Part shown: positions 11,927-35,801 of the stretch, piece by piece
Numbering within the stretch: position 1 is the first letter of the stretch
Layout: each line of letters begins with the position of its first letter
NCBI GenBank assembly: GCA_964460715.1
Contig: CAYWRG010000018.1
Span: 773-64,772 of the forward strand
Length of the DNA: 64,000 nt
Source: an uncultured Opitutus sp.
GTDB taxonomy: Bacteria > Verrucomicrobiota > Verrucomicrobiia > Opitutales > Opitutaceae
Direction: 5' to 3'
Notes under the pieces: generated by a model
The model's input: the letters and a program-made list of their open reading frames with translations, nothing else
Told to the model about the DNA's origin: nothing
Databases searched by the model: none
Translations under genes and position numbers: made by a program

Positions 11927-13057
11927 TCAGCTGGGCAGCGTAAACGCCGGCAGCTTCATGACCTCACCGCCGCGCAGGGCGGACTCGTGGGCGAGGATGC
12001 CGGTGCAGGTCCAGTTGGCCGACTCCATCGCGTTCGGGAACGGGTCGCGGTTCTCGATCAGCGCGGAGATGAACTCGTGGGCGAGGTGGGGATGCGAGCC
12101 ACCGTGGCCGCCGCCCTGGGTGAAGGAGAGGTGCTCGTTGCCCTCGGTGTCGTAGACGCCCTTGGTCGTGAACCGGCGGATGGGCTCCGGCAGGAGATGC
12201 GCGAAGTCCGGCACCGTGACCTTCTGGGGGATCTCGGGCTCTGGCTTCTTCGCGGTGTGGATGACCGGATGCTCGCCCTCGACGAGCGGCCACTCGAAGG
12301 TCTTGAGGCTGCCGTAGACGTCGAAGCTCTCGCGGTACTGGCGGGCGACATCGAACAGGCTGCGATAAATGCGGGCCGTGAGATCGCTGTCCTTGAACTT
12401 GATGTGGGTGGACTCGACCGCGAAGGGCGAGTTGTACTTCGGGATCATTTCCTCGCGGATCCGGCCGGAGCCGAAGCAGGAGACCGTCTCGGCGAGGTTG
12501 CGCGTGAGGCCGAGGCAAGGGCCGACGCAGTGCGTGGCGTAGTGCATCGGCGGCAGGCCGGGCCAGTAGCCGGGCCAGCCGTCCATGTCCTGCTGGTGAC
12601 TCGCCTGGAGAAACTGGATCTTGCCGAGCTCACCCTTGCGGTAGAGGTGGCGGACGAAGAGGAACTCGCGGGCGTACACGACCGTTTCCATCATCATGTA
12701 CTTGAGGCCGGTCTCGCGCGTGAGCTTCACGATCTGTTCGCAGTCGGCGACGCTTGTGGCCATCGGCACGGTGCAGGCGACGTGCTTGCCCTTGCGCAGG
12801 GCCTTGATCGACTGCGCGGCGTGGTCAGGGATCGGCGTGTTGATGTGAACGGCGTCGATCGACGGATCCTCCAGGAGTTCGTCGTAACTCTGGTAGCGGC
12901 CCTTGATCCCAAAATGGTCAGCCACGGCGTCGAGCTTGTCCTTCGAGCGCTGGCAGACCGCGGCGAGGTGGGCCTGCGGATGGGCCTGGTAGATGGGAAT
13001 GAACTCGGCGCCGAAGCCGAGGCCGATGATGGCGACGTTGATCTTGCGGTCTTTCAT
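11927..13057 (-). CDS. Gfo/Idh/MocA family oxidoreductase
   Basis: 376 aa. N-terminal Rossmann motif KINVAIIGLGFGAEF. Typical family layout. Confidence 0.85.
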   Translation of the reverse strand: MKDRKINVAIIGLGFGAEFIPIYQAHPQAHLAAVCQRSKDKLDAVADHFGIKGRYQSYDELLEDPSIDAVHINTPIPDHAAQSIKALRKGKHVACTVPMATSVADCEQIVKLTRETGLKYMMMETVVYAREFLFVRHLYRKGELGKIQFLQASHQQDMDGWPGYWPGLPPMHYATHCVGPCLGLTRNLAETVSCFGSGRIREEMIPKYNSPFAVESTHIKFKDSDLTARIYRSLFDVARQYRESFDVYGSLKTFEWPLVEGEHPVIHTAKKPEPEIPQKVTVPDFAHLLPEPIRRFTTKGVYDTEGNEHLSFTQGGGHGGSHPHLAHEFISALIENRDPFPNAMESANWTCTGILAHESALRGGEVMKLPAFTLPS

Positions 13058-13920
13058 GGGGTGGAGGCGGAGGGGTTGAAGGTGCGTTGAAGAAAGGCGA
13101 GGCCCTCGCGGGCAAAGGTGTCCTGATCGGGCACGCGGCGCTTCCAGATGCAGACCGCGGCGGCGAGATCGCGGTTTTCCGGGGTGAAGCTTTCGATGAC
13201 CACCATGCCCTGGTACTTCACGGCCGCGAGGCCGCGGGCAAAGGCGGCCCAGTCGGTCAGGCCGGTGCCGGGTACGCTCCGCTGGTTCTCGGAGACTTGG
13301 ACATGGACGAGAAGATCACCCGCGGAGCGGATGGCCGACTCCAAGTTGTCCTCCTCGAGGGTCATGTGAAAGCTGTCGATCATCACGCCGGCGGCGGGAT
13401 GCGCTACATCGCGGGCGAAGCGGACGCCGTCGGCGACGGAGTTCACGAGATCGGTCTCGAAGCGGTTGATCGGCTCGATCGCGATGCGCTTGCCGCGTTT
13501 GGCCGCGGCGACGCAGGCGGCGTGCACGCCCTCGACGGCGAGTGACCATTCGGCGCGGCGCTGGGCCTCGGGCAGGTAGCGGCGCTTGCCGACCTCGGAG
13601 TACAGCGGACCGCAGAGCGCGGGGGCGTCGATCTCCGCGGCGAAATCGAGGCAACGTTCGATGTAGTCGAGGGTGGAACGACGGACGGTGGCGTCGGCAT
13701 GAGTCAGGTCACGGCCGGGGCCGAAGGCGCCGCAGACCGAGGCCTTGAGGTTGTGATCCGCGAGCAGGCGCCGGATGCGCTTGGCGTCAATCAACGCGGG
13801 ATCCTCGAGCGGCAGTTCGATCGCACCGAAGCCGAGCTTGGCGACGCGCGGAATGAGGTCCTCGGCTGCGGCGGTCGTGAGCGGGGAAACCCAGAGCCAG
13901 GTGGTGGCACCGATGATCAT
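13054..13920 (-). CDS. Sugar phosphate isomerase/epimerase (xylose isomerase-like TIM barrel)
   Basis: Internal ATG at 13920 (MIIGATTWLWVSP...). AP-endonuclease-2/TIM-barrel family features (GFGAIELPLED, IAIEPINRFETD, HVQVSEN). 4-nt overlap with the downstream oxidoreductase gene. Confidence 0.8.
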   Translation of the reverse strand: MIIGATTWLWVSPLTTAAAEDLIPRVAKLGFGAIELPLEDPALIDAKRIRRLLADHNLKASVCGAFGPGRDLTHADATVRRSTLDYIERCLDFAAEIDAPALCGPLYSEVGKRRYLPEAQRRAEWSLAVEGVHAACVAAAKRGKRIAIEPINRFETDLVNSVADGVRFARDVAHPAAGVMIDSFHMTLEEDNLESAIRSAGDLLVHVQVSENQRSVPGTGLTDWAAFARGLAAVKYQGMVVIESFTPENRDLAAAVCIWKRRVPDQDTFAREGLAFLQRTFNPSASTP

Positions 13921-14081
13921 GGAGAAGGAGGCGGCGATGGGGTGGGGCTGGGCCGTGCGTCGGACGGGCGCAGCGAGGGGTGAGGCCGTTGAGTATGCCA
14001 CGGCGGGAGGAATCCGGTCTAGGATGCAGCCGTGCATTCGTCGTGTATGATTACGACAAACGCGGCGCGTGGGCGCGGCGA

Positions 14082-14861
14082 TCAGCCGGTTATGACGTAT
14101 TGCCGCCGGTAGGTGGTGGGCGGCATGCCCATGGCGCGGCGGAACTGTCGCGAGAAATCGCTGTGGTCGTAGAAGCCGACCTCCATGGCGATCTCGGTCG
14201 GGCGGCGGTCGGTCGTGCGCAGCCGCTCGGCGGCGATCGCGACGCGCATGCGGATCAGGTAGGTCCGCGGGTTCATCTGGAAGGTCTGGCGAAACTTGCG
14301 CTCGAACTGCCGGACGGAGAGCCGCGAGAGCTTGGCGAGGTGCTCGACGTCGAGTTTCTCACTGAAGTGTTCCTTCAGGTAATCGGCGGCGGGTGCCAGG
14401 TCGAGGTACGGCTGGATGGCGGCGCGGGTGCCTTCATAGCTTTTGACCGTGCCGCAGATCCCGCAAACCCGGCCGTGGCGATCGCGCAGCGGGAGCTTGT
14501 TGGTCTCGCACCACTCCGGTCGGCCGGCGGAGTTGGGAAAGAGTTCGATGATCCCGAGGATCGGCTGACCGGAGGCAATCACCCGGCGGTCGCCCTCGCG
14601 GTAGTGCTCGGCGAGCGCGTGGGGAAAGATGTCATCGTCGCATAAACCCACGACCTCTGCCTCCGAGGTAAAGCCGCACCGTCGGGCGAACGCGGTGTTG
14701 GCGTACATGATCCGGCCGTCGAGGTCCTTGGCGAAGAACAGGATGCTGCCCACGTGTTCGAAGAGGAGCCGGAACTGGCCGGGTGGCAGTTTTTGCGCCC
14801 ACGCCTCCTGTAGACGCAGCCGCTCCGATGGCGAATGCATACACGGAAATGAGCGCCTCAT
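14082..14861 (-). CDS. AraC family transcriptional regulator with N-terminal PAS-like domain
   Basis: C-terminal HTH_AraC (LSVRQFERKFRQTFQMNPRTYLIRMRVAIAAERL...EVGFYDHSDFSRQFRRAMGMPPTTYRR). N-terminal PAS-like segment (ILFFAKDLDGRIMYANTAFARRCGF). An alternative start at 14840 is possible. Confidence 0.85.
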   Translation of the reverse strand: MRRSFPCMHSPSERLRLQEAWAQKLPPGQFRLLFEHVGSILFFAKDLDGRIMYANTAFARRCGFTSEAEVVGLCDDDIFPHALAEHYREGDRRVIASGQPILGIIELFPNSAGRPEWCETNKLPLRDRHGRVCGICGTVKSYEGTRAAIQPYLDLAPAADYLKEHFSEKLDVEHLAKLSRLSVRQFERKFRQTFQMNPRTYLIRMRVAIAAERLRTTDRRPTEIAMEVGFYDHSDFSRQFRRAMGMPPTTYRRQYVITG

Positions 14862-14929
14862 TCCTATCGTGTCAACGGGGGTTCTGCTAGAGTCAGGCTG
14901 GTTCGTTACCCGTTTACCCCCTTCTGACC

Positions 14930-17900
14930 ATGCGCCTCATCCGGTTCGTGCTTCTTGCGTTCTCTCTCATCGACGGCGCCGCATTTGCGGCGGAGCCGGT
15001 TGTTCATCCGAAGGCTGACGCGCGTCGGCTTGAGGTGCTCTTCCTCGGTTCGCCGACCGCGAGTCACGCGGCGCACGATCCGATCACGCGTTACCGCATG
15101 CTCAAGAAAGCCACGGGCACATCGGGCATCAACCTGACGTATAGCGAGAGCCTGGAGGAAGCGCTGACGCCGGCGTTCCTCGCGCAATTCGACGCTGTGC
15201 TGCTCTACGCGAACTGGCCGCGGATCGAGCCGGCGCAGGAGCGGGCGCTGATCAGCTACATTGAGAGTGGTCGCGGGTTCATTCCGGTGCACTCGGCGTC
15301 GGCATGCTTTGGCAATTCCGATGCGTTCATCGCGCTGGTTGGCGCACGCTTCCAGCGTCACGGCGGTGAGGTCTTCACGCCGGCCACGGTGCTGCCGGAT
15401 CACCCGACGATGCAGGGACTGGCCCCGCTCGAGGCCTGGGACGAGACGTATCTGCACGATCGCCAGGGCGGTGATCGCACGGTCCTGCAGGTGCGCAAGC
15501 ACCCGGCAGGCGAGGAGCCGTGGACTTGGGTGCGCACGCAGGGTTCGGGCCGTGTATTTTATACCGCGTCGGGTCATGACGAGCGCGTCTGGGATCTGCC
15601 GGCGTTTCATCAGCTCCTGATCAAGGGCATCACGTGGGCGGCAGGTCCTGAGGCCTCTGGTCGACTGACGCGGCTGCAGTTGCCCGTGCTCAAGGAGCAG
15701 GACGTGATCATGCCCGGCTACCTCCGCAAGCAGCCGATCACCAAGGCGCAGATGCCGCTCTCGCCGGTGGAAAGCGCGAAGATGATCCAGGTGCCGCTCG
15801 GGTTTGAGGTTTCCCTCTTTGCGGCCGAGCCCGAGATCGTGAACCCGATCTACATCGGCTGGGATCACCGCGGCCGCGCCTACGTGATCGAGACGATCGA
15901 CTACCCGAACAATCTCCAGGCCGGCAATGTGGGCCATGACCGGATCAAGATTACCGAGGATACGAATGGTGACGGCCGGGCGGACAAGTTCACGGTGTTT
16001 GCGGAAGGGCTTTCGATCCCGACTTCGCTGGTCTTCGTCAACGGCGGCGTGCTCACGACCAACGGTACACAGCTGCTTTTCCTCAAGGACACGGACGGTG
16101 ACGACAAGGCGGACGTGCGGCAGGTGCTGGTCGAGGGCTTCAAGATGCACGACACGCACGCGAGCGTCTCCAATCTCCGCTACGGCTACGACAACTGGAT
16201 CTACGCGACGATCGGCTACTCCGGATTCGCGGGCGAGGTCGGCGGCGCGAAGCTCGAGTTTGCGCAGGGCCTCTTCCGGTTCACGCCCGACGGCAAGAAG
16301 ATGGAGTACCTGCAGCCGACGACCAACAACACCTGGGGCCTCGGCTTCATGGAGGACTTTGCGATCCTCGGATCGACGGCGAACGGCAATCCCTCGTGGG
16401 TCTACACGCTGCCCCAGGAGCGTTACCGCGCGTTCGGCATCAACCAGCCGCGCACGCCGCGGGCGGACGACAATCCGTTCTATTATCCCAGCTCGATGGA
16501 CATCCGTCAGGTCGACGTCCACGGCAAGTACACCGCGGGTGCCGGGCATGCGTTCTACACGGCCCGCCGCTTCCCGGCCGATTACCAGAACAAGGTCGCC
16601 TTCGTCACCGAGCCGACGGGCAAGCTCGTTGGCTCCTTTGATGTGGCGCCGGCGGGCACGATCTACACGGCGCGGCAGCGGCCCAACAACATCTTCAACA
16701 GTGCCGATGCGTGGAGTTCGCCGGTCACGGCCGACGTCGGTCCTGATGGCGCGCTCTGGATTGCCGACTGGTACAATCTGATCATCCAGCACAACCCGAC
16801 GCCAACCGCCGCGTCGTCCGGCGTTGATGCGCAGAACGGGCGCGGCAACGCCTACCAGACGGCGCTGCGCGACACCGAGCATGGCCGCATCTGGCGAGTT
16901 TATCCCAAGGGCAGTGCAAATGACGCGATCCCCGCGCTCGATCCGGCGCGCCCGGAAACCCTGGTCGCGGGGCTCTCGCATACGAATCAACTCTGGCGCC
17001 TTCATGCGCAGCGGCTGTTGGTCGAAGGCGGTCACCGGAGCGCGGCGGCCGACCTGCGGCGGACGGTCCAGGCGGGTGGCGTGGGCGCGGTGCATGCCCT
17101 CCAGGCCCTCGCGGGGCTGGGAACCGTGGACGCCGAACTCCTGACCGTGGCGTGGCGCTCGGACGACGCCGGCCTGCGCCGGGCCGGACGTGAACTTGCG
17201 GCGCGGGACAACCCGGCGTTCCTCCGCCAACAAGTCATGGCGGGCACAGGACCGTTGACCGCGGCGAATCCGCGCGAACTCATTGAATTGCTCGGCGCCG
17301 TGTCGCGGCTCGAGGCATCGCCTGAGCTTGGCCTGCGAATTTTTGCCACCGGCGTCGCACAGGAAACGGCGCTCGTTAAAGACACGGTGCTGGCCGATGC
17401 CTGGCAGCTCGCGGCGCGGGCCCATGCGGCCGGCGTGATTGATGCGGCGCTCGCGGCCAATCTCCCCTTCAAGCAGGCGGACCAATCCCTCGCCGGCCAA
17501 GTTCTCCCGGTGGTGGCGTGGTACGCGGGCACGGCGCCGGATCGCCGCGCGGCGGTGCTGGCGAGCGCACGCGGGCAGTCCAATGCGTTCGCTGCGTACG
17601 TGGCGGGCGGCCTTGCAGTCCCCGCGACCGGCCCGGTGGCGGCCAAGTTTGCGCCTGATCCGGTCATTCATCAGCGCGGTGCCCAGATATACGGCAACAC
17701 CTGCGTGGCTTGCCACGGCCTGGATGCGAAGGGCGTCGAAGGCGCGTTCCCGCCGCTCGCGGGTTCGGAGTGGATCACCGGCGATCCGTCGGCCGCGATT
17801 CGCATCGTCCTGCACGGGCTGACGGGGCCGATCACCGTGGCGGGCCAATCCTATGACAGCATCATGCCTCCGGTGGTCGGACTTTCGGACGGCGACATCG

Positions 17901-18052
17901 CGAGCGTGCTGACCTATATTCGCCAGAGCTATGGCAACGACGCCGCGCCGGTGACGGATGCCGAAGTCCGGGCGGTCCGCGGGGCGACCCGTCAGCGCCG
18001 CGATCTGTGGACGGCGGAAGAGCTCAAGACGCCGGTCAAGCTCACGCCCTGA
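14930..18052 (+). CDS. Secreted multidomain protein: ThuA-like domain + PVC-type membrane-bound-dehydrogenase/beta-propeller region + HEAT-like repeats + C-terminal c-type cytochrome
   Basis: 1040 aa with a signal peptide. ThuA-like N-terminus (EVLFLGS...FDAVLLYANW...GFIPVHSASACF). CxxCH heme motif in QIYGNTCVACHGLDAKG, followed by IMPP. This architecture is common in Planctomycetes/Verrucomicrobia. Confidence 0.75.
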   Translation: MRLIRFVLLAFSLIDGAAFAAEPVVHPKADARRLEVLFLGSPTASHAAHDPITRYRMLKKATGTSGINLTYSESLEEALTPAFLAQFDAVLLYANWPRIEPAQERALISYIESGRGFIPVHSASACFGNSDAFIALVGARFQRHGGEVFTPATVLPDHPTMQGLAPLEAWDETYLHDRQGGDRTVLQVRKHPAGEEPWTWVRTQGSGRVFYTASGHDERVWDLPAFHQLLIKGITWAAGPEASGRLTRLQLPVLKEQDVIMPGYLRKQPITKAQMPLSPVESAKMIQVPLGFEVSLFAAEPEIVNPIYIGWDHRGRAYVIETIDYPNNLQAGNVGHDRIKITEDTNGDGRADKFTVFAEGLSIPTSLVFVNGGVLTTNGTQLLFLKDTDGDDKADVRQVLVEGFKMHDTHASVSNLRYGYDNWIYATIGYSGFAGEVGGAKLEFAQGLFRFTPDGKKMEYLQPTTNNTWGLGFMEDFAILGSTANGNPSWVYTLPQERYRAFGINQPRTPRADDNPFYYPSSMDIRQVDVHGKYTAGAGHAFYTARRFPADYQNKVAFVTEPTGKLVGSFDVAPAGTIYTARQRPNNIFNSADAWSSPVTADVGPDGALWIADWYNLIIQHNPTPTAASSGVDAQNGRGNAYQTALRDTEHGRIWRVYPKGSANDAIPALDPARPETLVAGLSHTNQLWRLHAQRLLVEGGHRSAAADLRRTVQAGGVGAVHALQALAGLGTVDAELLTVAWRSDDAGLRRAGRELAARDNPAFLRQQVMAGTGPLTAANPRELIELLGAVSRLEASPELGLRIFATGVAQETALVKDTVLADAWQLAARAHAAGVIDAALAANLPFKQADQSLAGQVLPVVAWYAGTAPDRRAAVLASARGQSNAFAAYVAGGLAVPATGPVAAKFAPDPVIHQRGAQIYGNTCVACHGLDAKGVEGAFPPLAGSEWITGDPSAAIRIVLHGLTGPITVAGQSYDSIMPPVVGLSDGDIASVLTYIRQSYGNDAAPVTDAEVRAVRGATRQRRDLWTAEELKTPVKLTP

Positions 18053-18063
18053 TTGCTATGGCG

Positions 18064-18144
18064 GATGTAGCCGGGCTCGCTGAGCCCGGTCTGTATGCGC
18101 CGACCGATCTTTCCCTGACCGGGCTCAGCGAGCCCAGCTACATC
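18064..18144. repeat. Long hairpin element (27/28 bp stem, 25 nt loop); each arm is itself palindromic
   Basis: gatgtagccgggctcgctgagcccggtc (18064-18091) versus the reverse complement of 18117-18144 has one mismatch. Each arm contains CCGGGCTC...GAGCCCGG. Confidence 0.9.
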
Positions 18145-18154
18145 AGTCAACAAG

Positions 18155-18185
18155 CCGCATCCCGCCAGGGATGCGGTTTGCTGTT
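18155..18185 (+). terminator. Rho-independent terminator
   Basis: ccgcatccc / gcca / gggatgcgg followed by tttgctgtt. Confidence 0.8.
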
Positions 18186-18238
18186 CATAGGGACCGGAGA
18201 TTGCCACCGAGGTCAGAGTGCGCCGCAATCGCGGTGAA

Positions 18239-19147
18239 ATGAGCGAAGAAACGCCCGAGCATCATGCTGAGGTTTCCCGCCGCGCCGGCCAGGCTGCGGG
18301 GCTGGTGCTGCGTGGTGTCGCCCTGAATCTCTTGCTGGCCGCGATCAAGCTGGCGGGCGGCGTGTGGGGCCACACCTATGCGCTGATTGCGGATGCGGTG
18401 GAGTCACTACTCGACATCTTTTCATCGCTGCTGGTCTGGATGGGTTTCCGGGTCGCGTCGCGACCGCCGGACGAGAATCATCCCTATGGGCATGGCAAGG
18501 CGGAGCCGCTGGCGGCGATGGCGGTGGCGCTTTGCATCTTTGCGGCGGCGGGCTGGATTGCGGTGCACGCGGTGCGCGAGATCATCACCCCGCATCAAGG
18601 ACCGCATTGGGGCACGCTACCGTTGGTGGCGTTTGTGGTGCTGGTGAAGTACCGCTTTTCCCGCCGTCTGCTTGCGGCGGGGGAGAAGGATGGCAGCACC
18701 GCGCTGGGCGCCGAGGCTTGGCACCACTATGCGGACGCGGTGACGTCCGCGGCGGCCTTTGTCGGCATCGCGATCGCCGTGCTGGGAGGGGAAGGTTATG
18801 AGGCGGCGGATGACTGGGCGGCGCTGCTGGCGTGCGTGGTCATTGCGCTGAACGGCCTGAACGTGTTTAACCGTGCGTTGGGTGATGTGATGGATCTGGC
18901 CGTTCCCCTGGCGTTCGAGACCGAGGTTCGCGCCGTGGCTGCGGCGGTGGCGGGCGTGCGGGGCCTCGACAAATGCCGGGTCCGGAAAAGCGGACTCAGC
19001 CATCTGGTGGATATCCATGTGGAGGTTGACCCCGAGCTGACCGTCAGTGCCGGTCACGCCATCGCCGGGGCGGTGAAGCACGCGCTCCTGCGTTCGCCCC
19101 TGCGAATTACGGATGTCATGGTGCACATCGAGCCGGCGCCGAAGTAG
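18239..19147 (+). CDS. Cation diffusion facilitator (CDF) family metal efflux transporter
   Basis: ATG at 18239. Conserved TM2 segment ALIADAVESLLDIFSS, HPYGHGKAEPLAA, and a C-terminal cytoplasmic domain (HLVDIHVEVDPELTV). Confidence 0.85.
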   Translation: MSEETPEHHAEVSRRAGQAAGLVLRGVALNLLLAAIKLAGGVWGHTYALIADAVESLLDIFSSLLVWMGFRVASRPPDENHPYGHGKAEPLAAMAVALCIFAAAGWIAVHAVREIITPHQGPHWGTLPLVAFVVLVKYRFSRRLLAAGEKDGSTALGAEAWHHYADAVTSAAAFVGIAIAVLGGEGYEAADDWAALLACVVIALNGLNVFNRALGDVMDLAVPLAFETEVRAVAAAVAGVRGLDKCRVRKSGLSHLVDIHVEVDPELTVSAGHAIAGAVKHALLRSPLRITDVMVHIEPAPK

Positions 19148-19289
19148 TCCTTGATTCAAGGGGTTGGCGGAACCGGTTCTGCGCCGCTGGCTATTCGGCC
19201 AGATTCTACGGCTATGTCTGTGGTTTATACGATCAACCGCGGCAGGCTTTGCGGTTTACTCCCCGGGGGTCTGAAAGTTAGCGTGCTGT

Positions 19290-21116
19290 ATGAAGACGAG
19301 AAATCCGTCCGTACCCCTTAGCGAAAATCAGCACCTGCTCCGGTGGGTCGAAAAAATGGCCGAGTTGTGCAAACCGGCCGCAATCCACTGGGTGGACGGA
19401 TCCCAGGAAGAGGCCGATGAATTGAGCGCCCAGCTGGTGGCCAGCGGCACGTTCATCAAGCTGAACGAGAAGCTCTGGCCCGGCTGCTACTACGCCAAGT
19501 CCGACGCCGGGGACGTCGCCCGCGTCGAGGATCGCACGTTCATTTGCTCCCTGTCCAAGGACACGGCGGGACCGACCAACAACTGGGTCGATCCGTTCCA
19601 GATGCGCCGTAAGCTGAAGGAGGTCTTTGCCGGCTGCATGGAAGGCCGCACCATGTATGTGTTGCCCTACAGCATGGGGCCAGTGGGTTCGCAGATGTCG
19701 CAGATTGGCGTCGAGCTGACCGATTCGCCCTATGTGGTGGTCAACATGCGGATCATGGCCCGCGTCGGCCTGCCGGTCTACAAGGAGATCGACAAGGCGG
19801 AGAAGCGCGTCGTCCCGTGCATCCACTCGGTCGGACACCCGCTCAAGCCCGGCCAGAAGGATGTGCCTTGGCCCTGCAATCCCGACAAGTACATCGTGCA
19901 CTTCCCGGAGACCCGTGAGATCTGGAGCTACGGTTCCGGCTACGGTGGCAATGCGCTGCTCGGCAAGAAGTGCTTTGCGCTTCGCATCGCGTCCAACATG
20001 GCCCGCGACGAAGGTTGGATGGCGGAGCACATGCTGATTCTCGGCGTCGAGAACCCGAAGGGCGAGAAGACCTACGTCGCAGCGGCGTTCCCGAGCGCCT
20101 GCGGCAAGACGAACTTCGCCATGCTGATCCCGCCCGAGCACTTCAAGAAGCAGGGCTGGAAGGTGTGGACGGTCGGCGACGACATCGCGTGGATCAAGCC
20201 TGACGCCAACGGTCGCCTCCGTGCGATCAATCCCGAGGCCGGCTTCTTCGGCGTCGCCCCCGGCACGTCGAACAAGACGAACCCGAACGCGATGGCCTCG
20301 CTCTCGAAGAACACGATCTTCACCAACGTGGCGCTGACCCCCGAGGGTGGCGTCTGGTGGGAGGGCATGACGGACGAGCCGCCGGCTGAGTGCATCGACT
20401 GGCAGGGCAAGAAGTGGACCCCGGCGATCGGGAAGGAAACGGGCGCCAAGGCGGCCCATCCGAACGCGCGCTTCACGGCTCCGGCCTCCCAGTGCCCGAC
20501 CATCGACCCCGAGTGGGAGAATCCCGAGGGTGTTCCGATCAGCGCCTTCATCTTCGGCGGTCGCCGCGCGACCACCATGCCGCTGGTTTACCAGGCCTTC
20601 AACTGGAGCGCGGGTGTCTACACCGGCGCCACGATGGGCTCCGAGATGACCGCGGCTGCGGCGGGCACGATCGGCAAGGTCCGACGCGACCCGTTCGCCA
20701 TGCTGCCGTTCTGCGGCTACAACATGGGCGACTACTTCCGTCACTGGATCAAGATGCAGCGCAATCTCACCGAGACGCCGCGCATCTTCCACGTCAACTG
20801 GTTCCGCAAGGACAAGGACGGCAAGTTCATGTGGCCCGGCTTCAGCGAAAACATGCGCGTCCTCAAGTGGATCACGGACCGCGCCCGCGGTCGCGCGCTG
20901 GGTCGCGAGACGCCGATCGGCTGGCAGCCCCGCTACGAGGACCTTGATTGGGAAGGCATGAACTTCCCGAAGGAGCGCTTTGACGAGCTGCAGGCCTTTG
21001 ACCGTGAGGCGTGGCGAGCCGAAGTGCTTGGTCAGGAGGAACTCTTCCTCGATCTGCACGACCATCTGCCGAAGGAACTGATCTACGAGCGCCAGCTCCT
21101 GATCTGCCGGATGTAA
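19290..21116 (+). CDS. pckG: Phosphoenolpyruvate carboxykinase (GTP)
   Basis: 608 aa. Motifs FPSACGKTN (kinase-1a P-loop), GDDIAWI, WEGM, NWFRKD. Confidence 0.95.
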
Positions 21117-21155
21117 CCCGCGCGCCGAAAGGCGCTTCAGAGGTCCCGGAATCGT

Positions 21156-21251
21156 GGGGGGGGGGGGCGCGGGGGGGCGCCCGGGCGGCCCCCCGGGCCC
21201 CCCCGGCCCCGGCCCCCCGCCCCGCCCCCGGGCCCCCCCCCCCCCCCCCCC
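21156..21251. repeat. 96-nt tract made only of G and C, with G12 and C19 homopolymers
   Basis: Read directly from the sequence: G12 CGC G7 CGCCC GGG C GG C6 GGG C7 GG C4 GG C6 G C4 G C5 GGG C19. Confidence 0.95.
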
Positions 21252-21257
21252 ACGCCG

Positions 21258-22088
21258 TTGTCCCGCGAAAAACTCCTTGAGACCGCCCGGTCGCTTCCAG
21301 CGGACCTGGAGGTCCTCTCGACGCTGGGCGAGATGCTGCAGGACGTGAACGCGGAGCTTGATGCGATCGCTTCCCTGCTGCGCCGCGACCTCGCGCTGGC
21401 GGCCCGCATTGTCCGCATCAGCAACAGTCCGTTGTTTGGCGGTCGCGTGTCGTCGGTCGAGGAGGCGGTGAATCGGGTCGGCTTTGGGGAGATTCTTCGT
21501 CTGGTCGGTACGGCCACGACGGGCCGCTTTGCCGATCGCGCGCTGGAACACTACGGCATCACTGCGCTGCAACTGCGCGACAACATGCTCTACACGGCCT
21601 TCGCGTGCGAGGAACTCGCGCGTCAGGCGGGCGGCGATACGCGCATGGCCTACACTGCGGGCCTGTTGCGGCCGATCGGATTTATGGGCCTCGCCCGCGC
21701 GGCGCGCGGTCGGATCCCGCCCCGGGAGACCTTTGAGCCCAAGCGTTGGGGCAACTATCGCATTTGGGAGGGCAGTTTCCTCGGGATTGGTCATGCGGAG
21801 GTCGCTGGCCTCGTCCTGGACGAGTGGCATTTCCCCAAACCCATGGGCGCGGCGCTGAGGGCGCATTATCTTACCCACCAAGCGGACGCCTCCCAGCCAC
21901 TTGCGTTGCTGCTCAACTTGGCCGGCACCCTGACGGGTGCGGCGGGGCACGCGTTCGAGGGCGAGACGGATCACTGGCTGTTGACACCGGAAAAGCTCGC
22001 GGCGGCCGGCCTGACTGAGGAGCAGCTTTCGCACGCGGCCGAGGCGGCCGGGCAGGCCTTTGACCGGGCGGTTGCGCTGCTGCGCTAG
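21258..22088 (+). CDS. HDOD domain-containing signalling protein
   Basis: 276 aa. HDOD-type N-terminus (LPADLEVLSTLGEMLQDVNAELDAIASLLRRDLALAARIVRISNSPLFGG). The only in-frame start is a TTG 6 nt after the C19 tract, so the start is uncertain. Confidence 0.75.
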   Translation: MSREKLLETARSLPADLEVLSTLGEMLQDVNAELDAIASLLRRDLALAARIVRISNSPLFGGRVSSVEEAVNRVGFGEILRLVGTATTGRFADRALEHYGITALQLRDNMLYTAFACEELARQAGGDTRMAYTAGLLRPIGFMGLARAARGRIPPRETFEPKRWGNYRIWEGSFLGIGHAEVAGLVLDEWHFPKPMGAALRAHYLTHQADASQPLALLLNLAGTLTGAAGHAFEGETDHWLLTPEKLAAAGLTEEQLSHAAEAAGQAFDRAVALLR

Positions 22089-22201
22089 TCGATGTCGCCG
22101 GCCTGCGCTGAGGCCGATACCGGGAATTTCGATCACCGATCAAACGGAGCGGTCGCGGGCAGTGACTTGCGAAAACGATCGTCCCGCACAGGTTCCGGGC
22201 G

Positions 22202-22963
22202 ATGGTTGCTCGTTTCGCTTTCATCCTCTTTCTGGCGCTAGTCCCGACCGTCGTGGGCCTGCGCGCGGCGAATGATCTGGTGGGGGCTCCGCCGGTGCTG
22301 GCGGATGCGTTGACCAAGTTGCTGGCCGATGAGGGACACTGGGCCTCGACCCGCACCTCACGGTATTTCGACAAGGAAGGAAAGTTGGAGCGAACGGATG
22401 TTGAAAGGTACGACCCCTCGCTGCTGGACGATCAGCAATGGAAGCTGCTGCTGCGCAACGGTCGCCCGCCCACCGTGGCGGAGGAAAAATCCTGGTTGCG
22501 GACCCGTAACCGGGAAATGCGCCGGCGTGGTCGGCCGCTGGGCGCGATTATGGACCTCGCTGCGGCGACGCTGGCCGAGGAAACGCGCACGCATTGGGTC
22601 TATTCGGTTCCGATCAAGCCGGGCGCCAGCCGGCGCTTGCCCGCGGAGAAATTCTACGTGCTCGCGCAGGTTCAAAAGGAGCGGGGCGAGCTGGACCGGG
22701 TTGCGATCCGCACCACCGAGGCCTTTCGTGTCGCCGGAGTGGCGCGGGTGGAGAATGTGGAGGCCGATGCCAAGTTTGGCGTGATCGATCCCCAGTTTGC
22801 GGCACAACCGGCGCAGTTCATCGCCACAGGCTCAGCCAAGGTCGCCTGGCTTTTTCGCGTGGGAGGACGACTGGAGACGGAATGGGGCCAATTCCAGCGG
22901 GTTGCGCCCTATGCCAGCCGCTTTAACGTCACGATCGGGGAGCTGAAGGCCCTCGATTTTTAG
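22202..22963 (+). CDS. Secreted hypothetical protein
   Basis: 253 aa with a signal peptide (MVARFAFILFLALVPTVVGLRA). No domain I can name. Confidence 0.6.
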   Translation: MVARFAFILFLALVPTVVGLRAANDLVGAPPVLADALTKLLADEGHWASTRTSRYFDKEGKLERTDVERYDPSLLDDQQWKLLLRNGRPPTVAEEKSWLRTRNREMRRRGRPLGAIMDLAAATLAEETRTHWVYSVPIKPGASRRLPAEKFYVLAQVQKERGELDRVAIRTTEAFRVAGVARVENVEADAKFGVIDPQFAAQPAQFIATGSAKVAWLFRVGGRLETEWGQFQRVAPYASRFNVTIGELKALDF

Positions 22964-23031
22964 GACTGGATCGGCTCAAGGATCTGGCCGCCCGTGCCGA
23001 TAAAGGGGATTGCCGGAAATCTCCGGCTCCC

Positions 23032-23877
23032 ATGGCTCCGGCTCGCGACGTCCTCATCTCTCTTGGCAGCAAGCTATCGCCCTCCATGCGCGTCCTCGGG
23101 CGGCTGGGAGAGCGGCTGCGCGATCCGGACGCGAGCCTCGATGATATCATCCTGCTGGTGCGGATGGATCCCTCGCTCACGTTCAAGATCATGCGTCTGG
23201 CCAACGGCGTCATGTTCGGCACGCGCAATCGTTGCGACTCCCTCGAGGAGGCCGTGGCTCGCGTCGGGGTGGGGGAGATTCACCGGATTGTCGGACTCGC
23301 GGCGTCCCATCAGGCGTATCAAAGCGATTTGGTTTCGTATGGGTTTTCCGCCAGCATGGTCTGGGAAAATTCCGTGGCGGTGGCCGCACTCGCTGCGGCC
23401 TTGGCCAAGCGGAGTGGGGGGGATCCACGCTCCAGTTACACGGCCGGACTTTTGCGCAACGTCGGCCGAGCCGTGCTTGATCGGCTGCCCTCGGCGAGCC
23501 GTTACCCGCACGACTCCACCTGCCTGATCGACTGGGAGCGGCAGAATTACGGTTGCTCGGCCCCCGAGGTTTCCGCGCTGCTGCTGGGTCACTGGCGATT
23601 CCCGGAGCCCTTGGTGGCGATGGTGGAGAACCACGTGGATCCGATGGCGGCCACGGGCGCGCACGCCCCGTTGTCGTGTCTGCTCAATCTGGCATGCGGC
23701 CTCGCGGTGGATCTTGGGACGGGATTGCCGGGCGAGGACAAGGCGTGGGCGCATCGAACGGACGTTTCGGGCGTGCTTGGCCTCGACGATGTGACGATCG
23801 CGATCTGCCGCGATGAGGCACAGGCCGACATTGAGCGGACCCGCGCTGCGCTGGGTGACCTGCGGGTGGCGGCCTAA
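23032..23877 (+). CDS. HDOD domain-containing signalling protein (paralog of 21258..22088)
   Basis: 281 aa. LDDIILLVRMDPSLTFKIMRLANGVMFG. Shares YTAGLLR.(I/V)G and LLNLA blocks with the upstream HDOD ORF. Confidence 0.8.
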   Translation: MAPARDVLISLGSKLSPSMRVLGRLGERLRDPDASLDDIILLVRMDPSLTFKIMRLANGVMFGTRNRCDSLEEAVARVGVGEIHRIVGLAASHQAYQSDLVSYGFSASMVWENSVAVAALAAALAKRSGGDPRSSYTAGLLRNVGRAVLDRLPSASRYPHDSTCLIDWERQNYGCSAPEVSALLLGHWRFPEPLVAMVENHVDPMAATGAHAPLSCLLNLACGLAVDLGTGLPGEDKAWAHRTDVSGVLGLDDVTIAICRDEAQADIERTRAALGDLRVAA

Positions 23878-24023
23878 GTACAAGGTCGCCATCGGCTTGC
23901 TTTTTCTTTGTAAGCCACGGATTTCCATCCCTCTGGCCTGGGCGGGCTTATGCGCTCGCTCTCCCGCAGGCGGTTTGCCATGGAGTTTGCTGCAACTTCC
24001 GCACGGAGCCGGGTGTTCTGCGC

Positions 24024-24623
24024 ATGAACGATGATCCTCCAGTGCAAACCCATCCTACGGGGACGATGACCCCGGCAGATTTTACGACGTTCATGCGAAA
24101 CTATCAGGACATGGTCTATACCACCGCAGTTCGGCTCCTTGGCAACGAGGCGCAGGCGGAGGATATTTCCCAGGAAGTCTTCCTGAAGGCGTATGAGCGA
24201 TTCGATGATCTGAGCACCAGCCCGACCGCCGGTGGCTGGCTCAAGACCGTCACGACCAACCTCTCGCTCAATCACCTGCAGCGCTACCGCAAGCGCTGGC
24301 GCTTCTTCTCGGAGATCGTGCACCAGGACGACGAGGGCGGTGAGGCGGAGCCGGTGGAGTTTGCCGCGCCGGACAGCGATTTCCTCGCGGGAGTCGACAA
24401 GTCCGAGCGCCGGGCTTGGTTGGAGCGTGCCCTGGAGAATCTCCCTGAACACCAGCGTGTCCCGCTGGTCCTTTACCACTTTGAAGACCAGCCCTACGAC
24501 GAGATCGCCAAGCGGCTCGGCGTATCGCTCGCCAAGGTCAAGACCGACATCCTCCGTGGACGCGCGGCGCTCGCCCAGGTGCTGATGCGCAGCGGGGCCA
24601 CCCACGAAACCTTTCATCCCTGA
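24024..24623 (+). CDS. ECF-type RNA polymerase sigma factor (sigma-70 family, group 4)
   Basis: Region 2 (AEDISQEVFLKAYERF) and region 4 (PLVLYHFEDQPYDEIAKRLGVSLAKVKTDILRGRAAL). A start at 24066 is also possible. Confidence 0.9.
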   Translation: MNDDPPVQTHPTGTMTPADFTTFMRNYQDMVYTTAVRLLGNEAQAEDISQEVFLKAYERFDDLSTSPTAGGWLKTVTTNLSLNHLQRYRKRWRFFSEIVHQDDEGGEAEPVEFAAPDSDFLAGVDKSERRAWLERALENLPEHQRVPLVLYHFEDQPYDEIAKRLGVSLAKVKTDILRGRAALAQVLMRSGATHETFHP

Positions 24624-24628
24624 TCGCC

Positions 24629-25090
24629 ATGGACCGACCCACACCCGAAGAAATCGAACAGCGGCTCCATCAGGCTTTGCGCGGACTGCCCTCGCGGCGT
24701 GCGCCCTCCTCGCTCGAGCAGCGCGTGCTCGCGGCCATCGCCGAGCGTCAGGCCCGCCCTTGGTGGCACCAGAGCTACGCCTACTGGCCCACGCCCGTGC
24801 GCCTGCTCTTCTTTGTCCTGTCCGCCGCGCTCGCGGCCGTGGTGGTCGGCGCCGCCGCCACCTTCCTGCCTGGCTTTGGCGCGACGGCCGGACAGCCGGT
24901 CGAGGCCACGCTGGGCTGGTTTGCGCAGATCCGCGCGACCGGCTCCGCGCTCGCGGATGTCGGCGCCCGCCTGCTGCCTTCGGTATCCAGTACCTGGATA
25001 TACGTGGGGCTCGCGGTTTTCGCCAGCCTTTACGCCACCTTGATCGGCCTGGGAGCCGCGGCCTACCGCGTCCTCTGGCAGAATCGCTAA
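24629..25090 (+). CDS. Putative anti-sigma factor (membrane-spanning)
   Basis: 153 aa, 5 nt after the sigma gene. Short cytoplasmic N-terminus followed by TM segments. Assigned by position and architecture only. Confidence 0.6.
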   Translation: MDRPTPEEIEQRLHQALRGLPSRRAPSSLEQRVLAAIAERQARPWWHQSYAYWPTPVRLLFFVLSAALAAVVVGAAATFLPGFGATAGQPVEATLGWFAQIRATGSALADVGARLLPSVSSTWIYVGLAVFASLYATLIGLGAAAYRVLWQNR

Positions 25091-25114
25091 CCTTTGCTTC
25101 GCCTTCCTGATTTT

Positions 25115-26791
25115 ATGAAATCCTTCCGTTGGTCCACCTGCCTTGCCGGCGCGCTCCTCGCGCTCGGCCTCACCCTGACCCGGGCGCAGACCGCGCCGGA
25201 GGCGCCCAGTGCTCCGACCGCGCCTGAAGCCGCGCCGGCTCAACCCGCTTCGGAGGGACTGCGTTCGCTTGACGCCACGCCACCGGCCGAACCGCCTTCG
25301 CCGGCGGATCCGTCGGACCCCGCTGATCCTGATCCGGAGGCGGAAACGATTGAACGCCGCGCGAATTCAGAGTCCGGCATTTTTGTCATGGGCTCCGACG
25401 CGATCCTCAGCGGGGGCGAGACCGCCCGCGAGGTGGTGGCGATCATCGGCAACACGATCGTGGACGGCATTGTGGACGACGAGGTCGTCGCAATCATGGG
25501 CGATTCCACGCTGAACGGCGAGGCGCGCGAAGTCGTGGCGGTAATGGGCAATGTCACCGTGAACGGTCACGTTCGCGGCGACGTGGTCGCCGTGATGGGT
25601 GGCGTCCAGCTCGGGCCGCGCGCCCGGGTTGACGGTGAGGTCGTGTCGATCGGTGGCGGCGTGGAGCGCGCCCCGGGTTCGATCGTCGGCCGGGGCATTC
25701 AGGAGGTCGGCTTCATGAAGGGGCACATGCCGCGGATGGACGGCCTGCGCGCGTGGCTTAAGCACTGCCTGCTGCTGGGTCGGCCGCTCGGCTTTGGCGA
25801 ACATCTCGGCTGGGCCTGGGGCATCGCCTTTTCGTTCTTCGCTTTCTACGTGCTGCTGGCGCTGGCCTTCGGCAAGGGTGTGGAAAAATGCGCCGAGACG
25901 CTTGAGCAGCGTCCGGGCTACACGATTCTCGCGGCATTTCTGACCATCCTGGCGATCCCAATTCTGACGGTGCTGCTGGCGGTCACCGGCGTCGGTCCGG
26001 TGGTGCTGTTCTTTGCCGGTATCTTCGGCACCCTGTTCGGCAAGGCCGCCTTCATCACCTGGATGGGCCGCCGTTTCACCAAGCCGCTGGGCATCCAGAT
26101 GCCGGTGCTGGCCGCCTTGATCGGTGGGCTCCTGCTGATGCTCTTCTATGTGATTCCCTACCTGGGGATCGTGATGTGGAAGGTTTCGGGCGCGCTTGGT
26201 CTGGGCATGGTTGTCTACACCCTGATTCTCGGCATGAAGCGCGAAAAGGCGGCGGCCGCCGTCGCGGTCGCCCCTGCAGGTATGGCCGCGGCCTCGCCCG
26301 CCGCAGGCTTCACTCCTATGCCTTCGCAGGAGGCCGGCGCCTCATCCCCAGGCTTCACGGTCGAGCCGCCCTTCGTTGCTCCACCACCTCTCCGGCAGGT
26401 GACGCAGATGTCGACGCTGCCGCGGGCCGGGTTCTGGATCCGCATTGCGGCCTCGACTCTGGATGCGGTCCTGGTGGGCATTGGCTTTGGGATTATGAAT
26501 TTCCAGAGTGACTACTTTATGGCGGTTTACGCGGTCTACTGCATCGCGTTCTGGGCGCTCAAGGGCACTACGATCGGCGGCGTGATCTGCGGACTGAAGG
26601 TCGTGCGTCTGGATGATCGCAAGCTCGACTGGACGATTGCGGTCGTGCGTGCCCTCGGTGGCTGCCTTTCCTTCGTGATCGCGGGCCTCGGCTTCATCTG
26701 GGGGGCATTCGACGCCGACAAGCAGGCGTGGCATGACAAGATTGCCGGCACGACCGTGGTGCGCGTGCCCAAGGGCACGCCGCTGATCTGA
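25115..26791 (+). CDS. Membrane protein with bactofilin-like beta-helix repeats and a C-terminal RDD domain
   Basis: ATG at 25115 with a signal peptide, then a Pro/Ala-rich linker. Repeats VVAIIGNTIVDG / VVAIMGDSTLNG / VVAVMGNVTVNG / VVAVMGGVQLG. Multiple TM segments. RDD-family C-terminus (AGFWIRIAASTLDAVLVGI...WHDKIAGTTVV). Confidence 0.7.
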   Translation: MKSFRWSTCLAGALLALGLTLTRAQTAPEAPSAPTAPEAAPAQPASEGLRSLDATPPAEPPSPADPSDPADPDPEAETIERRANSESGIFVMGSDAILSGGETAREVVAIIGNTIVDGIVDDEVVAIMGDSTLNGEAREVVAVMGNVTVNGHVRGDVVAVMGGVQLGPRARVDGEVVSIGGGVERAPGSIVGRGIQEVGFMKGHMPRMDGLRAWLKHCLLLGRPLGFGEHLGWAWGIAFSFFAFYVLLALAFGKGVEKCAETLEQRPGYTILAAFLTILAIPILTVLLAVTGVGPVVLFFAGIFGTLFGKAAFITWMGRRFTKPLGIQMPVLAALIGGLLLMLFYVIPYLGIVMWKVSGALGLGMVVYTLILGMKREKAAAAVAVAPAGMAAASPAAGFTPMPSQEAGASSPGFTVEPPFVAPPPLRQVTQMSTLPRAGFWIRIAASTLDAVLVGIGFGIMNFQSDYFMAVYAVYCIAFWALKGTTIGGVICGLKVVRLDDRKLDWTIAVVRALGGCLSFVIAGLGFIWGAFDADKQAWHDKIAGTTVVRVPKGTPLI

Positions 26792-33856: not shown

Positions 33857-35797
33857 CTAACCGGCGCGAAAGCGGAGGGCCAGTTCGCCGGCGTTGTGTG
33901 TCCAATCGAGTGTCGGTAGGCCGGATTTGGGCGCTGTCTTGCCTAGAATCGATTTGCGCGACAGGGGCCGGCCAGCTAGGCGCAGGATATCGACCCCATT
34001 CGTCACGGCGACGTGGCTGATCGACACGCGCCCAAGGCCGCGAACGGCGATGCGGACGGGCTGGGCGGGGTTGTCCACCGGGACGCTGAATCCTCGCCTG
34101 ATGCGCGCGCGCGGGCGGGCCGCGGCGGCGCGGAACTCAATGGTGAAGCGGGCGGCCAACTCGTGCCACGTTCTGTCATCCTGGTATTGCTCCACGATGA
34201 TTTTTTGCAGCGCGGGCGCATGATTGTGCACGGTGAAGCTCAGTTGCCAGCGGCCGCAAACCGGCGTGCCTTCCCAGGCAAGATCCGGATTGCGATGGCA
34301 CTGGCTCAACCACCGCAACCAGTCGCGCAGGCGCTGCTCATCGCGGTCGAGCATGGTTTCGTTCTGGCCTCGTTGCCCGGGATTACGTGACCGTCGCCAC
34401 ATGCGCAGGGCGGCATCACGGCCCCGGGCGATTGCGTCGTAAAACGCGGACGCCTCCGCCTGCAATTCCGCGATTCGCGTCGCTGCCGCGGGCGCGAGCA
34501 ATCCACGCCGCAGTACACGACGAATCGAGTAGACTCCGCGGACCGCACTCCGGACAAACACGTCGCGTTCGGCGAGGTAGTGTCGGAACGCGACGCTGGC
34601 GGCGAAGGGCTCCGGCAGGCGCTGCTTGCAGAGGCGTCCGAAGAATCGCGACTCGGCCGCAAAGGGTGCCGCGGATTCCGGCTGGGCGCATCCATCCCAG
34701 CGATCATTGATCTCCCAGCGCGCATAGCCGGCGAAAGCCCTTTCATCGCACCGCAGGGCGGCGCGGGCGGCCTCGCGGGCCCCGCTTTTCCCAAACACCC
34801 GCTCGAACCCCTTGGCGAGCATGTCCGTGTGGTTGTCAATGACCGGATCGGTCCAGAGGCAGGCGGCGGCAGCGTCGACCACCGTTGTCATCTCGATCGC
34901 GAGGCGGTACGCCTCCCAGGAGCTGACGAGGAATCCGGCGGCTCCGGTCCGCTGGCAGCGGTTCCACCAGGAACGGATGTTGCCAAGTCGGTCCGCGAAA
35001 AGGGGCAGGGGTTCGAAGCGGAAGGCTCCGTTCATCGGACAACCCCAGTACTCGATTCCCTGCTTGTTCAGCGCGCCGGAAAGATCGTATTCGGAAAAAT
35101 TATACAACTCCATCCGAGGGTGGCGGCCAAACGGGTAGTAGTACCAGTCGTAGGCGATCACGCCGCGCGGAAGCAAGGGGATGGCCGCGGGCAGAAGTGC
35201 GAGCATGTCGGCCCACAGGCCCATGCGCAGCCCGTGCCCGGCAACCAGCGTGTGCAGCCGGCCGGCATGAGCGGCGAAATGTCCGGCGAGGCCGATCCGC
35301 GCTATTTCGTCCCGGCTGAGCGGATGCTTTCCCAGCTGGAATGACTCATCGAGTCCGACGTGGACTTTCCCCGCCGTGCAGAACGGCGCCATGTCGTGCA
35401 GCAGGCTGGCGGCGACCTCCAGCGTGCGCGGATGCAGCGGGCAGATCTGCCCGCGCTCCAGCGGGCTGCCATCCGGCGCGCGCAGCTCGTTTAAATCGCG
35501 AAACCGCGGATCCTTGATGAGGTACTGCGTGTGGCCGAGCAGATTGACGATCGGCACGACGCGAATGCCGGCACGATCCGCACCGGCGACCAGCCGCTCG
35601 AAATCGCGGTAGGAATAGGCGTCGGACCGGGCCAGGCCCGGCATACTGGGGTACTCGACTGCATCCTCCAGGTGGAGGTACAGTTCGTTGTAGCCCCAGT
35701 CGCCGTAGCGGGGAAGCTGGGCCAGCAGCCAGTCAAGCCGTTCGACCTGACGAGCGAGGTCCCATTGGAAGGCGCGGATCATGGCGCCACCCGGCAT
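33857..35797 (-). CDS. Glycoside hydrolase family 20-like protein (beta-N-acetylhexosaminidase-like catalytic domain plus C-terminal extension)
   Basis: FQWDLARQ...YNELYLHLED...IVNLLGHTQ...VHVGLDES resembles the GH20 TIM-barrel pattern, but the family assignment is approximate. Start set at the ATG at 35797 to avoid overlap with tal. Confidence 0.5.
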   Translation of the reverse strand: MPGGAMIRAFQWDLARQVERLDWLLAQLPRYGDWGYNELYLHLEDAVEYPSMPGLARSDAYSYRDFERLVAGADRAGIRVVPIVNLLGHTQYLIKDPRFRDLNELRAPDGSPLERGQICPLHPRTLEVAASLLHDMAPFCTAGKVHVGLDESFQLGKHPLSRDEIARIGLAGHFAAHAGRLHTLVAGHGLRMGLWADMLALLPAAIPLLPRGVIAYDWYYYPFGRHPRMELYNFSEYDLSGALNKQGIEYWGCPMNGAFRFEPLPLFADRLGNIRSWWNRCQRTGAAGFLVSSWEAYRLAIEMTTVVDAAAACLWTDPVIDNHTDMLAKGFERVFGKSGAREAARAALRCDERAFAGYARWEINDRWDGCAQPESAAPFAAESRFFGRLCKQRLPEPFAASVAFRHYLAERDVFVRSAVRGVYSIRRVLRRGLLAPAAATRIAELQAEASAFYDAIARGRDAALRMWRRSRNPGQRGQNETMLDRDEQRLRDWLRWLSQCHRNPDLAWEGTPVCGRWQLSFTVHNHAPALQKIIVEQYQDDRTWHELAARFTIEFRAAAARPRARIRRGFSVPVDNPAQPVRIAVRGLGRVSISHVAVTNGVDILRLAGRPLSRKSILGKTAPKSGLPTLDWTHNAGELALRFRAG

Positions 35798-35801
35798 GCG
35801 C

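Follow-up and report, generated by a model that had tools for sequence, protein, structure and literature searches.

The contingency loci of Neisseria, Haemophilus, Campylobacter and Helicobacter usually consist of single homopolymeric runs of about 7-15 nt, which are conserved at the locus across strains, differ there in length and leave the rest of the protein intact. Other described elements with which a G/C-only tract between two genes can be compared are bacterial G-quadruplex or i-motif regulators and Rho-independent terminators, and a further class is technical in nature. In two-colour Illumina chemistry the lack of a signal is read as G and a red-only signal as C, and poly-G tails arise from clusters that fade (fastp, PMC6129281). 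Sequence-specific errors, coverage dips and assembly gaps in Illumina data have been described to be triggered by inverted repeats and GGC motifs (Nakamura et al., PMC3141275).

Here we describe a tract of G and C between a pckG gene and a gene encoding a HDOD-domain protein in a 64-kb stretch of DNA (in the following, the window, meaning the whole stretch that was analysed). With contingency loci the tract shares a long G/C homopolymer beside a start codon and a reading frame that would be restored by a change of +1 or -2 nt, but it is 96 nt long and composite, is absent from all relatives and replaces a conserved start. As in bacterial G-quadruplex and i-motif regulators, the minus strand agrees with the sequence definition of such structures, whereas the tract shows no conservation and no positional logic with respect to any retained promoter or start. 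Like a Rho-independent terminator it offers a GC-rich stem 3' of a stop codon; unlike one, it has no U-run, and the stem would comprise tens of G:C base pairs and is not conserved. The closest likeness is to the technical class, and the tract works like, and most likely is, a familiar low-complexity read-tail artefact and not a real feature. In common with Illumina poly-G and low-complexity tails (PMC6129281, PMC3141275) it has long G/C homopolymers without A/T, a G-rich left half and a C-rich right half, a position at an inverted repeat with GGC motifs, and a texture that recurs at many metagenome contig ends. It differs from them in being internal to a long contig, where it bridges correctly ordered flanks, and its assignment to this class comes from indirect evidence.

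The G/C tract and its neighbouring genes

Upstream of the tract the window encodes an intact pckG for a GTP-dependent phosphoenolpyruvate carboxykinase of 608 aa (positions 19290..21116, plus strand; Pfam PEPCK_N, E 1e-100, and PEPCK_GTP, E 8e-169). Downstream a HDOD-domain gene can be read for 276 codons from a TTG (21258..22088, plus strand; Pfam HDOD, E 2e-30, residues 13-204). The Pfam matches confirm both neighbours as they had been named in a first, sequence-only reading of this DNA. The HDOD gene is also represented by NCBI protein P0126, a form of 251 aa that starts with MLQDVN and is without the first part of the HDOD domain (21333..22088, plus strand). From residue 26 of the window ORF the sequence of P0126, which is recorded from an NCBI contig of 70,937 nt, agrees with it completely. 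P0126 begins at the ATG at 21333, which is in frame as well, and TTG 21258 is therefore, contrary to what had been stated, not the only in-frame start. A second HDOD-domain gene encoding 281 aa follows at 23032..23877 (plus strand); Pfam HDOD is listed for its identical product on a contig from the Logan assemblies (L049).

Read directly off the sequence, positions 21156-21251 of the window are 96 nt of pure G/C with zero A/T, and the run order is G12 C G C G7 C G C3 G3 C G2 C6 G3 C7 G2 C4 G2 C6 G C4 G C5 G3 C19. This agrees exactly with the extent and run structure first reported for the tract. The runner-up within the 64-kb window is a pure-G/C run of 31 nt at 34103-34133, and at 63% GC the expected number of pure-G/C runs of at least 96 nt in a window of this size is 1.5e-15. 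Outside the tract the window holds one homopolymer of at least 7 nt, a G7. The tract is of low complexity and has long homopolymers (G12, C19), unlike the rest of the window, as would be expected of an artefact. It also falls into two halves, with about 79% G in the left 33 nt and about 81% C in the right 63 nt. Each half, taken on its own read strand, is a G-rich tail with about 20% C, and the two tails face each other.

On the minus strand the tract contains seven G-runs of at least 4 nt (19, 5, 4, 6, 4, 7 and 6) within 63 nt. The definition of a G-quadruplex motif (at least four G-runs of at least 3 nt with short loops) thus applies to this strand as noticed before, by the sequence criterion alone. 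The very stable hairpin that had been proposed for the tract was reproduced in so far as the predicted fold has -107 kcal/mol, but it is no better than that of dinucleotide shuffles (z = -0.96), so that its stability comes from composition alone. A hairpin under selection was rejected as a candidate on this z-score against shuffles.

Comparison with related loci

The related loci all belong to Opitutaceae or Opitutales (Verrucomicrobiota), and nearly all of them come from metagenome-assembled genomes (MAGs). The closest relative is a locus of the Opitutaceae MAG SMAG_U3642 (L001), whose HDOD protein is 98% identical to that of the window. Window and L001 are collinear with about 95-96% nucleotide identity in two BLAST blocks, L001 1-3964 corresponding to window 17193-21156 and L001 3994-8828 to window 21251-26115, and the pckG side is free of gaps as far as 21156. 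The two blocks are separated in L001 by 29 ordinary bases (CCGATGACAGGCGCTATGCCCGTTATCGG, L001 3965-3993), which in the window are replaced by a foreign block of 94 nt made of G and C only (21157..21250, no strand assigned), a net difference of +65 nt. With two collinear blocks and 29 versus 94 nt between them, the tract is therefore a replacement and not an insertion into an intergenic spacer. The HDOD reading frame is broken because of the net +65 nt, which is the only indel across 8.9 kb of comparison with L001 whose length is not a multiple of 3 (the others measure 27, 9 and 6 nt).

A G/C tract or homopolymer was found at the homologous site in none of the 47 related loci, in which the longest pure-G/C run anywhere is 29 nt. 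Two further relatives, L002 (88%) and L024 (93%), have the native arrangement like L001, and in L002, L012, L024 and L025 pckG and the HDOD gene are syntenic too. The native 29 nt of L001 contain no homopolymer from which slippage could expand.

The native sequence of L001 reads GTG CCG ATG ACA GGC GCT ATG CCC GTT ATC GGC ACG CCG TTG and encodes the HDOD N-terminus (M)PMTGAMPVIGTPL; its 29 replaced bases hold the ATG start codons of the HDOD gene together with a conserved upstream motif. HDOD homologues have 283-289 aa and start with MPxIGTPLSR, MTGxMPAIGTP or similar sequences, and the conserved MPxIGTP N-terminus is missing from the HDOD ORF of the window. Left of the tract the last native bases are the GTG at 21154..21156 (plus strand), a remnant of the GTGCCGAT(A/G) motif and of the 5' arm of a native hairpin. 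Right of the tract homology to the relatives restarts, as given by the BLAST block against L001, with CACGCCG (21251..21257, plus strand), which is the base of the 3' arm and in which ACG CCG are the codons Thr-Pro of the native N-terminus ..IGTPLSR. Neither of the starts considered earlier for the HDOD gene agrees with these comparisons. The TTG at 21258 is an internal Leu codon in the 283-289 aa proteins of the relatives. The GTG at 21154 does have a homologous GTG in frame with the HDOD gene in the sequences of L001, L002 and L024, but in the window it is a motif remnant only, and the real ATGs lie in the replaced bases.

The native site of L001, L002 and L024 forms a hairpin whose loop contains the start codon (arms CGTGCCGATGAC ... 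GTTATCGGCACG in L001). Folded as single-stranded DNA it reaches -13 to -16 kcal/mol, with z-scores of -2.4 to -4.25 in these three loci, and the site has an inverted repeat as well as GGC motifs. The breakpoints of the replacement are symmetric and lie 3-4 bp inside both hairpin arms (CGTG/CCGAT...ATCGG/CACG, breakpoints marked by slashes), with CGTG retained in the window on the left and CACG on the right of the tract.

Search for independent copies of the site

The source of the window appears to be a metagenome assembly, since its closest relatives are MAGs, its HDOD product matches NCBI protein P0126, and contigs of the same strain in the Logan assemblies are fragmented here. The same strain is contained in the Logan assembly of run SRR12712864, in which contig L048 is 100% identical to window positions 11944-18092 (6,149 nt) and contig L049 encodes products identical to those of the window at about 22649-24338, including the second HDOD protein. 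Both contigs come from an assembly that is fragmented over the region, and the tract site lies outside both. The literature yielded no publication on run SRR12712864. The flank adjoining the tract that is common to the window and L001 (GCTTCAGAGGTCCCGGAATCGTG) had 0 exact matches in metagenome_contigs, and no exact-product matches were on record for pckG, the 253-aa downstream gene, P0126 or the 64-aa ORF that runs from the GTG across the tract. When cut HDOD products of the same strain were sought with residues 1-121 of the ORF, only 10 matches were obtained, with 71-93% identity. Among Logan contigs, metagenome_contigs and product look-ups, no independent assembly across the tract was found.

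Origin of the tract

We consider it highly probable that the G/C tract is sequencing or assembly junk that bridges a coverage gap at the native hairpin. The replaced bases would form the interior of a hairpin of 9-12 bp and would carry the -10-like half of the promoter-like motif and the HDOD ATG codon or codons. Signal or quality may fall off in reads that enter this hairpin, from whichever side, once they are a few bases inside the stem. Forward and reverse reads would then both end in G-rich tails, the reverse ones appearing C-rich on the plus strand, and the tails could be united via shared G/C k-mers. The product would consist of left flank, G-rich tail, C-rich tail and right flank, with the hairpin interior absent. 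The true sequence at the site is probably about 29-30 bases long and similar to that of L001. The HDOD gene of the organism is most likely intact with a normal ATG start, the loss of the start being an annotation casualty of the artefact. Among the options raised at first was an assembly error in the form of a miscounted homopolymer with a true start at 21154. An artefact as such is the direction best supported, but a miscount does not account for the tract, the whole 94-nt block being foreign.

Tracts of this kind also occur elsewhere. The metagenome-derived contigs collected in IMG/VR were scanned for G12 followed after 40-70 nt by C12, and for the reverse order. The matches were 50 contigs (24 with G..C and 26 with C..G order), and most of their tracts were pure or near-pure G/C with the same irregular run texture as the tract in the window. 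A distance of at most 200 nt from the locus or contig end was found for 38 of the 50 tracts, with a random expectation of 7.6%, a positional bias by which read-tail junk that extends contigs can be recognised. Eight high-G/C examples were internal to contigs; such junk can therefore also land inside contigs. For two internal tracts from IMG/VR (L051 and L069) we searched for tract-free relatives, and none were found. An asymmetry of orientation in IMG/VR, with G..C more frequent than C..G, had been predicted and was not seen (24 versus 26), which supports neither side.

The cause to which we commit ourselves is low-complexity G/C junk reads, with no particular sequencing chemistry implied. Judging by their low IMG dataset numbers, several of the tract-bearing IMG/VR datasets may be older than two-colour chemistry, and a platform-specific cause is for this reason uncertain.

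Some points count against an artefact. Self-joining of two poly-G tails does not occur in a strict de Bruijn graph, and mixed G/C junk reads would be needed. Furthermore, the rest of the compared contig is clean and free of frameshifts. The substitutions between window and L001, which we checked for a G/C-biased error signal, have an ordinary, transition-dominated spectrum in which no such signal was found; the quality of the contig is therefore not generally poor.

Alternative explanations

The tract might instead be real and represent a strain-specific lesion, in which the hairpin was broken and repaired, its interior lost and 94 nt of G/C gained by untemplated or slippage-prone synthesis. 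We regard this as unlikely. The tract is present in the deposited contig and both its flanks are perfectly collinear with L001, and the symmetric breakpoints within the hairpin could also mean hairpin cleavage in vivo. Removal of the -10-like motif and the ATG codons would have left a null or weak HDOD allele, the expression of which would need read-through from pckG together with the TTG or a downstream ATG. The second HDOD paralogue 1 kb downstream, which is indeed present at 23032-23877, could compensate for such a loss. Two non-synonymous changes of an unusual kind are also present in the same HDOD gene (V to G and D to A), both within the otherwise invariant FMVLDRAARG stretch, and could mean relaxed constraint. 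However, the remainder of the gene shows no sign of decay, because it is 98% identical to the L001 protein and without stops or frameshifts. C19 and G12 runs would moreover be highly unstable in vivo, and unrelated assemblies have tracts of like texture concentrated at their contig ends, which marks the type as technical. We are not aware of a bacterial mechanism by which a break would receive about 94 nt of pure G/C, and the untemplated addition of the LigD type amounts, to our knowledge, to a few nucleotides. Were the tract real, it would be an unusually large untemplated addition of G/C and a candidate hypermutable switch.

It is very unlikely that we see a genuine tract in which untemplated G/C replaced the interior of the start-codon hairpin and thereby created a hypermutable G12...C19 element that could fold into a G-quadruplex or i-motif. 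If this were true, one of two HDOD paralogues would be silenced and a slip of +1 could re-express it from the old GTG with a Gly/Pro-rich N-terminus. It would also point to an undescribed bacterial repair activity that adds G/C.

The chances are slimmer still for a functional hypermutable element, in which slippage in C19 or G12 would toggle a fusion of GTG 21154 with the HDOD gene, or in which a G-quadruplex, i-motif or hairpin would regulate or terminate transcription between pckG and the HDOD gene. The frame arithmetic behind the proposed fusion by length change is correct. GTG 21154 is in frame 1 and TTG 21258 in frame 0, AGAGG is located at 21139-21143, 10 nt before the GTG, and a simulated change of +1 (C20) gives a continuous ORF from GTG 21154 into the HDOD gene. 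The canonical G-quadruplex pattern on the minus strand and the extreme predicted stability of the hairpin would also suit such an element. A change in length can thus switch the frame in silico, but the tract is missing from 47 of 47 relatives, including one at about 95% ANI. The slipped-strand ON/OFF switch that had been suggested has to be given up, as none of these loci has a tract or a homopolymer seed at the site. In addition, the conserved start codon and motif were deleted and not added to, and the product of the 'ON' state would have its conserved MPxIGTP N-terminus exchanged for 33 Gly/Pro residues.

A role as terminator or regulator after pckG, likewise proposed at first, fares no better: there is no T-run with which intrinsic termination could proceed, there is no conservation, and folding is at the level of shuffles. 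Directly 3' of the pckG stop codon the window has a small hairpin, GCGCC-GAAA-GGCGC (21122..21135, plus strand, identified by folding and without a T-run), the sequence of which is identical in L001, L002 and L024. In the relatives this 5-bp hairpin with a GNRA loop is all that follows pckG. An intrinsic terminator was rejected as a candidate, with 0 terminator-like sites in 20600-21800 and the tract followed by ACGCCGTTG without a U-run. Altogether, the results lend no support to a conserved phase switch, a terminator or a G-quadruplex regulator.

A chimeric join of different genomes or strains, with flanks that do not belong together, has next to no probability, for although junk tracts at contig ends could in principle link unrelated contigs, both flanks match the single contig of L001 with unchanged order and orientation and lack only 29 nt of it between them; this collinearity refutes such a join.

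Significance for metagenome-assembled genomes

If the tract is an artefact, as we favour, it matters little as biology, and its practical value is that of a quality flag. The artefact would have removed a start codon, and a truncated protein of 251 aa has entered public protein collections as a result. Tracts of the type G-run ... C-run without A/T could be screened for automatically in metagenome-assembled genomes.

A conserved arrangement upstream of HDOD genes

The comparison with relatives exposed a conserved arrangement ahead of the HDOD genes, which is a real feature and probably of more interest than the tract. The ATG of 40 distinct related loci follows 9-12 nt after a conserved (G)TGCCGATA/G motif. 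A further 16 nt upstream of this motif there is a CTTCAG, CTCAAG or CTTAAA word, regardless of which gene lies upstream. Across Opitutales the arrangement ahead of HDOD genes is CTYMAG, 16 nt, CCGATA, 9-12 nt, ATG. It resembles a promoter that would give a leaderless or very short-leader mRNA. No consistent Shine-Dalgarno sequence was found in the HDOD genes of the relatives, in which the ATG follows 9-12 nt after the promoter-like motif. The argument that a Shine-Dalgarno sequence is missing at the TTG is therefore moot and carries no weight.

At the first HDOD gene of the window the upstream half of this bipartite promoter-like motif, CTTCAG, is kept (21135..21140, plus strand; anchored comparison of the 40 distinct related loci) and the GTG survives as well, while the ATG codons have been lost together with the CCGAT(G) half. 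Upstream of the second HDOD paralogue the bipartite motif occurs once more (CTCAAG, 13 nt, GTGCCGATA; 22975..23002, plus strand), with spacing as at the first HDOD gene of the relatives. In the closest clade the conserved motif upstream of the HDOD gene doubles as one arm of the hairpin that encloses the start codon.

A bipartite motif upstream of HDOD genes

Among the related Opitutales loci (L001-L047) we found a conserved bipartite motif upstream of HDOD genes, consisting of CTTCAG, CTCAAG or CTTAAA, a spacer of 16 nt, the element CCGATA/G (mostly in the form GTGCCGATA), and a further 9-12 nt to the ATG. It was present 5' of an HDOD gene in 40 distinct loci, regardless of the identity of the upstream gene. 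This arrangement resembles either an operator or a dedicated promoter whose transcript would be leaderless or have only a short leader.

The window encodes two HDOD-domain paralogues about 1 kb apart (21258-22088 and 23032-23877), and both are preceded by a copy of the motif. The copy 5' of the first gene (21135-21156) is truncated, and the copy 5' of the second (22975-23002) lies 29 nt from the ATG, compared with 9-12 nt in related loci. Across the 64 kb of the window there are just two occurrences of the exact 8-mer TGCCGATA, one of them at the second paralogue. Many relatives also carry a second GCCGATA just 3' of the HDOD gene. Relative to the closest relative L001, the window has a 27-nt intergenic insertion at 22111-22137 (AGGCCGATACCGGGAATTTCGATCACC), 3' of the first HDOD gene, which contains GGCCGATA. 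Between the paralogues lies an ORF of 253 aa (22202-22963) without a Pfam match and with a hydrophobic N-terminus (MVARFAFILFLAL); its product is possibly secreted.

In the closest clade the Ile-Gly-Thr codons of the HDOD gene (ATCGGCAC) base-pair with the GTGCCGAT motif, forming a hairpin with a stem of 9-12 bp and the ATG start in its loop. This hairpin (L001 and L002, 3955-4003 each; L024, 434-482), at the site homologous to window 21148-21260, folded with -13 to -16 kcal/mol and z-scores of -2.4 to -4.25. Its 3' arm was absent in more distant relatives.

The first HDOD protein of the window reads FMGLARAARG at 21686-21697 instead of the otherwise invariant FMVLDRAARG, and VLD is kept in all its close homologues. 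Two substitutions, both transversions (T to G, A to C), underlie this change; they could be real or could be G/C-biased miscalls in what would be a region of thin coverage.

Other G/C-only runs and further features

The second-longest pure-G/C run in the window (34103-34133, 31 nt, GCGCGCGCGCGGGCGGGCCGCGGCGGCGCGG) falls within the span of a minus-strand ORF of 658 aa (33857-35833). It is free of long homopolymers and looks like ordinary high-GC sequence. In IMG/VR, tracts of the form G12...C12 or C12...G12 were present in 50 viral contigs (L050-L099). Most of them consisted purely of G/C, and 38 lay no more than 200 nt from the end of a contig. Of the high-G/C tracts, eight were internal (e.g. 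L051, L059, L067, L097) and may represent similar junk joins within public viral contigs.

At 14930-18052 the plus strand encodes a protein of 1040 aa that combines ThuA, DUF7133 and cytochrome c domains. An identical product is encoded on a Logan contig assembled from SRR12712864, identifying this public run as one that contains the strain. A tmRNA gene was detected on the minus strand at 6079-6433 (Rfam RF00023, 154.6 bits), with the tag peptide GTYEEMPLAA. Within the 64 kb window no tRNA genes were detected.
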